Source: Escherichia coli (GTDB lineage Bacteria; Pseudomonadota; Gammaproteobacteria; Enterobacterales; Enterobacteriaceae). Taken from it: a stretch of 64,000 bases of DNA. Location: NCBI RefSeq assembly GCF_002854065.1, contig NZ_CP024147.1; one strand, written 5' to 3'. The position numbers were made by a program. Each line of letters begins with the position of its first letter. Positions within the stretch are counted from its first letter, which is position 1. Of the stretch, positions 18,401 to 21,400 are shown piece after piece.

Positions 18401-21400
18401 AACCAATTCCCACCTTAAACCAACTGCTCCGGATAATTCAGATGATCTCCTGTTCAAAAAGCTATCCTCCCCTTCGAAATTAATGACAATTATCGGCGAT
18501 GAAATTCCTCTTATATCTGAAAAACAGTCGCTTTCGAAGGTACTTTTAAATGATGAGAATAATGAACTGAGTGATGGTACAAACTTCTGGGATAAAAATC
18601 GTCAATTAACCACAGATGAAATAGATTGCTATCTTCAGAAGATCGCCGCTAATGCAAAAAATACTCAAGTCAATTATCCTACTGGTCTCTACGTCCCCTA
18701 CTCCACCAGAACTCATCTGGAAGACGCTCTCAATGATAATATTAAGAGCGATCCATCATGGCCGAAAGAAGTCCAGTTATTCCCCATAAATACTGGCGGA
18801 CACTGGATATTAGTTTCGCTACAGAAAATAGTAAATGAAAAAAAATAATACACAACAAATTAAATGCGTCATATTCAACTCATTGTGCGCACTAGGCCAT
18901 GATAAAGAAAATTCACTTAAGCATGTCATTAATAGTTTTAATTCTGAACTCATGGGAGAAATGTCGAATAATAATATAAAAGTTCATTTAACTGAACCCG
19001 AGATAATATTTTTACATGCCGCTCTTCAGCAGCATTTAAGCCAAAGTTGCGGTGCATTTGTGTGCATGGCAGCCCAGGAAGTGATTGAACAAAGGGAAAG
19101 CAATTCTGACAGCGCCCCCTATACGTTATTAAAAAACTATGCTGGCAGATTTAAAAATATTCAGCAGAAGAGCAGTACGAAATTGATTTTCAACATCGAC
19201 AGGTAAACAGAAATTGTTATTTAGATAAATATGGCGATGCAAATATCAATCATTATTATAGAAACTTAGAAATAAAACACTCACAACCCAAAAATAGAGC
19301 ATCAAGCAAAAGAGTAAGTTAACATCATTGTTAATTAATTCGACTAGTCAGTAAATATGCTGACTGGTCGAACATAGTTTACTAAAAAGTCATCACTGAC
19401 TGATGTCAGTCACACCATCCGCCAGTTCAATCTTCGGGTATTTCCAGCGTATCTCGGCACGCGATTGCTGGTCTGTTGATGTAGTGGATTGTTGTTGCTG
19501 ACTTTTCTTACCCTCAGATTTCTGCCCCCTGTCAACTCAATCTGCCAATAAATAACATAATTATATTTTTCCTTATATGAATTCCTTTTTAAAATAGCGA
19601 AGCCACTGTAAAAGATACTTTTTGTATAGATCTAACAACCGTAATAAAACAAACAGTCATAACTCATTATAAATAATGATAAAATAACGTCTTTTATTGA
19701 TAATTTACATATGAAAAAAATTTTCCTTTTGTTATATTATTTCTGTTTTCCCTCCCTCTGATTATTTTTTACCAACCCTGGGTCACTGCATTATCGCCAA
19801 CGCCCCGACACGTAATTCCTGAGCAATGAGAAAAAACAGTTCGTTATCTTACACAAACTGTGCATCCACGTAATGCCGACAATATTGATAATCTGAATAG
19901 GTCCGTAGAGTATATAAAAGAGGTCTTTGTCAGTAGCGGTGCCAGAGTTACCGCGCAGGGCGTCCCCGATTGGCTATTACGACTCTGCGCCTGGAAGCCA
20001 GAATTACCCTTACCCGGCAATGTCCTGGCTTTATCCCGATCGGGGAGACTTTATTGCCGTGGTCGGCAGAATGCAGGATATCAACGCCGTTCGTCAGGTA
20101 AAAGCGGCATTGTTGTCATCTCAGGATTTATCTGTTTATTCTATGAATGCCCCAGGGTTTATTCCCGGTATTGATTTCTCTGATCACCTGAATTATTGGC
20201 AACACGATATTCCCGCCATAATGATTACTGACACCGCTTTTTATCGTAATAAACAATACCACTTGCCCGGTGATACCGCAGACAGATTGAATTATCAGAA
20301 AATGGCTTAGGTAGTGGATGGTGTTATAACTTTGTTATACAACAGTAAATAATAAAAATTTCTCGAGGCGGGTCCAGAAAAAGCGACATGCACATTTTAT
20401 TTTCCCTCATCTGTTTTAAGATGCGAAACATGAAATTCAACGGAGGAAAAATAAATGGGAATGATTGGCTATTTTGCAGAAATTGACTCAGAAAAGATTA
20501 ACCAACTGCTTGAGTCTACTGAAAAACCTTTGATGGATAATATACATGACACGCTTTCAGGATTACGCCGACTGGATATTGATAAACGCTGGGATTTTTT
20601 ACACTTTGGGCTGACAGGCACCTCTGCTTTTGATCCCGCGAAGAATGATCCGCTGAGTCGTGCCGTGCTTGGTGAACACAGCCTCGAAGATGGCATAGAT
20701 GGCTTCCTTGGATTGACCTGGAATCAGGAGTTAGCCGCGACAATCGACCGACTGGAATCACTGGATCGAAATGAACTGCGTAAACAGTTTTCCATTAAGC
20801 GACTCAATGAAATGGAGATTTATCCGGGAGTGACCTTTTCAGAAGAGTTAGAGGGGCAACTCTTTGCCTCGATCATGCTTGATATGGAAAAGCTGATTAG
20901 CGCGTATCGACGTATGCTGCGACAAGGGAATCATGCGCTGACGGTTATTGTTGGGTGATGGTGTCAGGGCTCCAAAAAAAACCGCCGAACATGTCGGCGG
21001 CTTTCTGACTTACAAACTGATAGCTTACATCAGCGGCATTGCTAACCGCACAATGCTAATCAGCGGTTGTGGCCATACACCCAGTACCAGTACCAACAGT
21101 GCAGAGATCAGCACAACGATACCGCCTGCGCTGTACTGCCAGTTTGACGGTGCATCGCGACCCGGTTGTTCCGGTGCGTGCAGGTACAGGCTCACCGCCA
21201 CACGCAGGTAGTAGTAAAGGCCGATTGCCGAACCGACAACCACGGCACCCACCAGCCACCACAGGTGTGCCTGGACACCGACCGCCAGCACGTAGAACTT
21301 ACCGATAAAGCCCAGCGTCATCGGGATACCGGCCAGAGACAGCATCATCACCGTCATCACCGCCGCGAGGATCGGGCGATGCCAGAACAGACCGCGGTAA

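Follow-up and report, generated by a model that had tools for sequence, protein, structure and literature searches.

The 66-bp gap between the convergent genes yfbM and nuoN in the window, the whole 64,000-nucleotide stretch of Escherichia coli contig NZ_CP024147.1 that was analysed here, is most probably an intact, island-free allele with a predicted nuo terminator, which the strain inherited and which was not created in it. The junction is an old multi-allelic presence/absence polymorphism, which a lone indel would not describe. Between the yfbM stop codon and the A/U tract of the terminator, various genomes carry one or another of at least five low-GC cassettes, and the empty junction is the majority state among sequenced E. 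coli genomes. The yfbN, yfbO and yfbP genes that K-12 carries at this position are one of these alternative cassettes, and their absence from the window is therefore ordinary.

The gap is bounded on its left by yfbM (20455–20958, + strand), an intact DUF1877 gene of 167 aa that ends in TGA (20956–20958) and whose product matches the Pfam family PF08974 (E = 2.7e-35) as well as the solved YfbM structure (PDB 1ryl, E = 8e-109). On its right lies nuoN (21025–22482, − strand), the last gene of the nuo operon, with a TAA stop codon that is read as TTA at 21025–21027. The proteins encoded by both genes are identical to those of K-12. At the DNA level, yfbM is the same as in MG1655 at 504 of 504 nucleotides and nuoN is 98.2% identical to its K-12 counterpart, the 300 bp nearest the junction containing 16 differences (5.3%) as against about 1.3% divergence beyond. 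Strain 100416 and the K-12-like PS200 share the same RefSeq NuoN protein, WP_000156701.1. The first-pass annotation had placed 66 bp and no genes between the two convergent stop codons, and the ORFs and the raw sequence both bear this out (20959–21024). An Rfam scan of 20300–21300 revealed no known RNA gene in the gap and gave only sub-threshold matches, to sRNA families by way of terminator stems, and a tRNA search of 16000–26000 found none. Searches of the literature for nuoN or yfbP together with a terminator returned nothing relevant, and those for DUF1877/YfbM nothing useful, the results being dominated by the poultry term "YFBM".

An intrinsic (Rho-independent) terminator consists of a GC-rich stem-loop followed at once by a U tract, and the 66-bp gap appears to hold a predicted terminator of this kind for the nuo operon. 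On the + strand, the gap begins with a 15-nt filler (TGGTGTCAGGGCTCC, 20959–20973) that is specific to the island-free allele and is without counterpart in K-12. It is followed in the raw sequence by eight A's (20974–20981), which on the − strand are read as the U8 tract of the nuo terminator, and then by the hairpin (20982–21000, − strand), for which folding gives a 7-bp stem with six G-C pairs (left arm CCGCCGA, 20982–20988, and right arm TCGGCGG, 20994–21000) and a 5-nt loop (ACATG, 20989–20993). A 24-nt spacer (CTTTCTGACTTACAAACTGATAGC, 21001–21024) extends from the hairpin to the nuoN stop codon, the hairpin thus starting 24 nt past that codon on the nuo strand, where the stem runs directly into U8 (20981 down to 20974). 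The bare 7-bp stem alone folds with −11.7 kcal/mol and the 66 nt of the nuo strand with −21.5 kcal/mol (z = −2.7 versus shuffles), and an extended helix (20973–21006) pairs the A run with CTTTCT. A consensus promoter and terminator scan had called no terminator, a result that was rejected as a false negative after folding because maximal extension of the stem takes the A run into the helix, so that not enough U's follow it.

The hairpin had been described initially as a strong bidirectional terminator, a description that fits the nuo strand, with its hairpin and U8, much better than the yfbM strand. On the latter (+) strand, the transcript 3′ of the stem contains only CUUUCUG, the DNA reading only CUUUCUGACUU, and the start of the spacer (CTTTCTGACTT) provides a weak, interrupted T tract for yfbM transcripts. 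In the canonical shared terminators of convergent genes, a stem-loop and U tract likewise lie past the last stop codon with an A tract opposite, but here the yfbM strand has an interrupted U tract, which makes bidirectionality asymmetric. Given U8 on one strand and only CUUUCUG on the other, the hairpin would act strongly on nuo transcripts and is a weaker candidate terminator for those of yfbM. RNA polymerase leaving nuoN would transcribe the 7-bp GC-rich hairpin and then eight U's, and the nuo transcript would be released 24–50 nt past the nuoN stop codon. Read from the other side, the hairpin probably also stops yfbM transcripts, likely less efficiently because the T tract is interrupted in that direction.

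Conservation at the junction is concentrated in the terminator. In an alignment of the window with the divergent E. coli SCPM-O-B-8794, E. whittamii and three E. albertii-type genomes, 30 of the 31 columns in the block of A tract and hairpin (20976–21006) are invariant, whereas the flanks of this block are about 45% invariant (8 of 17 columns in the filler and 7 of 17 in the downstream spacer), a conservation that, judged from this alignment, exceeds chance. E. albertii-type refers to genomes whose encoded YfbM exactly matches the one in the E. albertii type strain; the search for YfbM contigs gave four loci, and since the contig of the type strain itself stops 14 bp past yfbM, the E. albertii-type context was obtained by exact-protein look-up. 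The stem is invariant across all Escherichia loci examined, and the CCGCC/GGCGG core is kept, with different loops, in the E. fergusonii and Superficieibacter-type variants, the latter being represented by a contig with a NuoN identical to that of Superficieibacter sp. BNK-5. In these two variants, the hairpin is flanked by A7 and T7. That of E. fergusonii, A7-CCGCCGAAATCGGCGG-T7, is symmetric and thus would be better suited to stopping transcription in both directions, and the hairpin of the Superficieibacter-type contig is CCGCCTATTCCGGCGG. The spacer differs among lineages and is unlike K-12 at four of its 24 positions. A filler homologous to that of the window is present in the empty junctions of E. 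coli SCPM-O-B-8794, E. whittamii and five E. albertii-type genomes.

The statement in the first-pass annotation that K-12 carries yfbN, yfbO and yfbP at this position proved correct. The order in NC_000913.3 is yfbM (b2272), yfbN (b2273, −), yfbO (b2274, +), yfbP (b2275, +) and nuoN (b2276), such that yfbM is not adjacent to nuoN. A BLAST comparison of a K-12-identical locus with the window shows that in K-12 an insert of 2,561 bp takes the place of 17 bp of the window (20960–20976). The insert has an atypical composition (39.8% GC, compared with 51.9% for the window and 57.1% for nuoN), and its right end enters the A tract, so that the nuo terminator of K-12 has U5 and not U8. The two loci share the flanking genes, identical YfbM and NuoN proteins and the same hairpin closing the nuo operon, but K-12 differs in its three genes, in A5, in a G for A in the loop and in a decayed SMI1-like gene. 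The last of these is the 272-bp "intergenic" stretch between yfbM and yfbN, which is the decayed 3′ part of such a gene (tblastn, 52–75% identity in three frame-shifted pieces, E = 2e-21).

There is no integrase or transposase in the K-12 cassette, no tRNA lies within 5 kb, and a direct-repeat search found no convincing repeats flanking it. The cassette therefore lacks the features of an integrase- or transposase-borne island, namely a recombinase, a tRNA/att site and direct repeats. It had been suggested that residual repeats at the junction might indicate an excision, but around three cassette variants the search for direct repeats turned up nothing beyond short matches such as chance would give, and the variants other than K-12 show only a 6–7-nt imperfect CAC(A/C)AT repeat. 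A 16-nt likeness between the 3′ ends of yfbM and yfbO′ (locus L003) was rejected as the source of a deletion because a deletion between the two copies would not give the observed filler.

The strain is clearly not K-12. Although the flanks in the window are 96.9–99.6% identical to K-12, the rbn-nuoN gene content of K-12 is not found: yfbN, yfbO, yfbP and yfbK are missing, yfbL has an internal gap of 326 bp and elaD is frameshifted. The conclusion that the gap belongs to a non-K-12 strain is thus correct, and is borne out by yfbK, yfbL and elaD as well, but the absence of yfbN, yfbO and yfbP by itself says little about strain identity, since about 78% of E. coli are without them.

The frequency of the junction states was determined in a sample of 5,426 complete E. 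coli genomes. An uninterrupted junction was detected in 4,214 of them with a 181-bp probe and in 4,309 with a 1,101-bp probe, which tolerates short insertions, and the empty junction is the majority state at about four in five genomes, a proportion that counts sequenced genomes and not independent lineages, many K-12-type genomes being laboratory derivatives. The gap of about 95 genomes between the two probes is at least partly accounted for by a copy of IS200/IS605 inside the A tract, and such copies were located at the A8 position in three loci (L017, L025 and L026). The old cassette site also attracts IS200. Strains with the empty junction include those of O157:H7, O111 and O145 (including O145:H28). 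Most RefSeq E. coli junctions have the gene order, type of gap and hairpin of the window and differ from it only at single positions of the filler and spacer. Over the 2,101-bp span 19000–21100, identity to the window reaches 100% in CUWW06 and 99.9% in strain 100416; over the 1,101-bp probe it is 100% for strain 100416 and 95–98.4% for the remaining listed sample. The arrangement of the window as a whole (no yfbK, gapped yfbL, frameshifted elaD) is common to 2,578 genomes, with 100% identity in CUWW06. K-12 cassette DNA, on the other hand, is present in 1,015 of the 5,426 genomes, in 985 of them at ≥99% identity, and is always chromosomal and in a single copy. Its carriers extend beyond laboratory K-12 derivatives to isolates from poultry, swine, turkey, dog, crayfish, vegetable and patients.

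Several other cassettes are found at the same point. Strain UID2309220013 has yfbN′-yfbO′ without yfbP (DNA 85% identical to K-12), ABW_A19 has a truncated SMI1/KNR4-like gene with yfbN and yfbO, and E. coli 2017-02-2CC has an intact SMI1/KNR4-like gene of 190 aa with yfbN only, a pair that also occurs in E. fergusonii and Escherichia sp. MOD1-EC7003. In Escherichia sp. E2748, yfbN and yfbO are accompanied by a 409-aa gene, which was considered as a longer YfbP and rejected as it is not related. The cassette of E. fergusonii and 2017-02-2CC occupies the same spot, between yfbM and the nuo terminator, and differs from the window in two genes that the window does not have. Cassettes of the E. 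fergusonii type are bounded by a filler-like stretch of 18 nt (TTCAGCTGGTAGCACAAT) on the left and by ACACCAT on the right, ends that are compatible with insertion and with microhomology deletion alike. The yfbN genes fall into two classes, one from K-12, UID2309220013 and E2748 and the other from ABW_A19, 2017-02-2CC and E. fergusonii, with about 78% DNA identity between them, compared with 96–98% for nuoN and 93–100% for yfbM in the same genomes. The Superficieibacter-type contig encodes a 46%-identical YfbN directly downstream of nuoN, behind a like terminator, and this synteny suggests that the position of yfbN beside nuoN may be very old. A 39% relative was found in Chryseobacterium. A 173-aa neighbour of yfbN on the Superficieibacter-type contig was considered as a relative of YfbM or of the SMI1-like protein and is unrelated to both. 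Across the genus, the junction is empty in E. albertii-type genomes and E. whittamii and occupied in E. fergusonii and two cryptic Escherichia.

Two origins had been put forward at the outset for the difference from K-12, a clean deletion in this strain and an insertion in the K-12 lineage, and neither withstands these comparisons. A recent deletion, by which an ancestor with the K-12 arrangement precisely lost yfbN-yfbO-yfbP, might explain why the left flank is K-12-like, with yfbM DNA 100% identical, and would be in keeping with the decay of nearby genes in the strain (yfbK missing, the 326-bp gap in yfbL and the frameshift in elaD). However, K-12 is without the 15-nt filler and three of the eight A's, and no deletion in a K-12-type allele could restore a filler matching those of E. 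whittamii and E. albertii-type genomes, which excludes a recent deletion in practice. Moreover, about 4,200 genomes share this empty junction and there are no repeats around the K-12 cassette to allow a precise excision. The empty junction is homologous base for base to those of other Escherichia species and hence is not a deletion scar formed here. It is also very unlikely that the three genes are new in the K-12 lineage and a signature of it, even though the cassette is a minority state in E. coli, nearly clonal (the 985 genomes at ≥99%) and low in GC (39.8% against 51.9%). Such an insertion is too narrow an explanation for a cassette present in about 1,000 genomes from varied hosts and sources, for which diverged versions exist at the same point, with yfbN/yfbO counterparts 85–91% identical at the junction in other E. 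coli and in E2748, and in which the left 272 bp are the decayed form of an SMI1-like gene that is intact in other variants. The diverged counterparts and the decayed SMI1-like copy indicate that the cassette was at the locus long before K-12.

A deletion of much greater age deserves more consideration but is still doubtful. In this case, an Escherichia ancestor would have carried the SMI1-like gene and yfbN, and the empty allele would have arisen once, by deletion between short CAC(A/C)AT repeats, and spread across species, making the allele of the window a derived and very old null allele. E. fergusonii carries a cassette and the Superficieibacter-type yfbN-like gene adjoins nuoN behind an ACCAT-A7-hairpin-T7 terminator, from which it follows that the ancestor of the genus may have been cassette-bearing. 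The sequences at the ends also agree with such an event, as the E. fergusonii-type cassette has GCACAAT at its left boundary and ACACCAT at its right, with GCACCAT or GCAAT at the join of the empty alleles, and yfbN is 96.7% identical between 2017-02-2CC and E. fergusonii, similar to core-gene divergence. Against it, the E. albertii-type junctions are empty, and among the Escherichia species compared, E. albertii stands furthest apart in nuoN and yfbM identity; an imperfect repeat of 6–7 nt is weak evidence; and the neighbours of the Superficieibacter yfbN (173 aa and 85 aa) are unrelated to yfbM and the SMI1-like gene, so that its adjacency to nuoN could reflect an independent capture at a hotspot.

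On the most probable reading, in which the strain inherited an intact island-free allele, the cassette alleles and the empty allele both predate E. coli. The alleles appear to move among lineages by homologous recombination through the conserved flanks, without a dedicated mobility machine. The mosaic nature of these flanks, in which yfbM is 100% identical to K-12 while nuoN is 5.3% diverged in its first 300 bp and only about 1.3% thereafter, points to recombination as the likely vehicle. Within E. coli, the empty allele is probably the older one and the K-12 cassette would have spread in a subset of strains, a polarity suggested by the presence of the empty allele in many serotype lineages and the almost clonal nature of the K-12 cassette, which favour import of the cassette into a subset.

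The products of the cassette genes were also compared with known families. The YfbN family has 134 cluster representatives, and the UBA_4 profile matched in the N-terminal part of 36 of the 75 aligned members. YfbO had no match in NCBIfam or in the copy of Pfam used, and a newer family, PF27222, is recorded for it, while YfbP gave only sub-threshold TPR matches in Pfam and NCBIfam. The 190-aa gene is named SMI1/KNR4 by RefSeq; its matches to SUKH_5, SMI1_KNR4 and SUKH_6 in Pfam score 16–18.5 bits, under the cut-off of 25–27, a word-index search found only five close relatives of the protein, and its AlphaFold model is unusable (pLDDT 35). It is conceivable, if rather improbable, that the nuo-terminator site is an ancient multi-allelic cassette site with a null allele at which the small genes are conflict-related, as orphan immunity or phage-interaction genes. 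Such a reading would take in the SMI1/KNR4-like protein, YfbN (UBA-like, with a putative DMP19-like C-terminal domain, PF14300), YfbO, the TPR protein YfbP and the 409-aa protein; a literature search on DMP19 and immunity found nothing useful. According to a 2025 preprint, Keio deletions of yfbO or yfbL render K-12 resistant to phage N4, as supported by complementation (bioRxiv 10.1101/2025.09.29.679331). If the genes are conflict-related, presence or absence of the cassette would have a phenotype, and the present strain, in which yfbO is missing and yfbL broken, could naturally be a poorer host for N4-like phages.

The arrangement at the junction is already known and ordinary, its hairpin is an ordinary operon terminator, and, being a standard arrangement visible in thousands of annotated genomes, it matters little alone. 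What value it has is modest and corrective: at this junction the exception is the reference strain K-12, with a cassette that shortens the U tract of the nuo terminator from eight to five, and yfbN, yfbO and yfbP should be regarded as one of the alleles at a variable cassette site and not as core genes. Should the reported requirement of N4 for yfbO and yfbL hold, the fact that most E. coli naturally lack these genes would bear on phage host range.

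Differences from K-12 in the window cluster directly beside the yfbM-nuoN junction (20977-21280), where 16 fall within the initial 300 bp toward nuoN; farther along that side the sequence differs by ∼1.3% and yfbM shows no differences at all. Because the NuoN protein is identical to that of K-12, all of the nuoN-side differences are silent, and the clustering looks like the boundary of a recombination tract. Among the genes that K-12 carries at this junction, yfbN falls into two deep allele classes that share ∼78% DNA identity and occupy one chromosomal position (comparison loci L003, L010, L011, L012, L019, and L024), while the adjoining nuoN is 96-98% identical, a pattern typical of accessory genes that evolve fast or are exchanged repeatedly. 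The 272 bp spacer between yfbM and yfbN in K-12 (L012 7439-7710), designated intergenic, is the decayed 3′ third of a SMI1/KNR4-like gene, which is intact (190-191 residues) in Escherichia fergusonii, Escherichia sp. MOD1-EC7003, and a few E. coli.

The A tract that lies immediately upstream of the nuo terminator hairpin (window 20974-20981) is occupied by an IS200/IS605 element in one E. albertii-type genome and no fewer than two E. coli genomes (L017 5520-6230, L025 880-1590, and L026 2780-3500), and the species-specific flanks of these copies indicate at least two independent insertions into the same few bases. The counts for the long and short junction probes (1,101 bp, 4,309 genomes; 181 bp, 4,214 genomes) differ by about 95 E. 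coli genomes. The terminator itself (20973-21006) is clear, although a simple terminator scan did not call it, since the scan extends the stem by matching the A8 run to CTTTCT, which uses up the U tract. Such consumption of the U tract should be borne in mind wherever a scan of this kind returns zero sites.

The entire arrangement from 19000 to 21100 recurs in 2,578 of the 5,426 genomes, which again puts K-12 in the minority. Within it, 19433-20310 lacks yfbK, and K-12 sequence at L001 3157-4714 is unmatched in the window. The sequence at 19455-19967 is a divergent allele with only 76-81% identity to K-12, E. whittamii, and others. An internal 326 bp of yfbL is missing, leaving a C-terminal ORF of 127 residues. 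Farther upstream, the deubiquitinase gene elaD (18102-19206) is broken up into a 248-residue and a 123-residue ORF that overlap, and the annotation of strain 100416, which is 99.9% identical, reads “elaD frameshifted.”

Loss of yfbO or yfbL from K-12 BW25113 was reported to confer resistance to phage N4 that can be complemented (2025 preprint, bioRxiv 10.1101/2025.09.29.679331). In the window yfbO is absent and yfbL is broken, and yfbO is naturally missing from most E. coli, this strain included.
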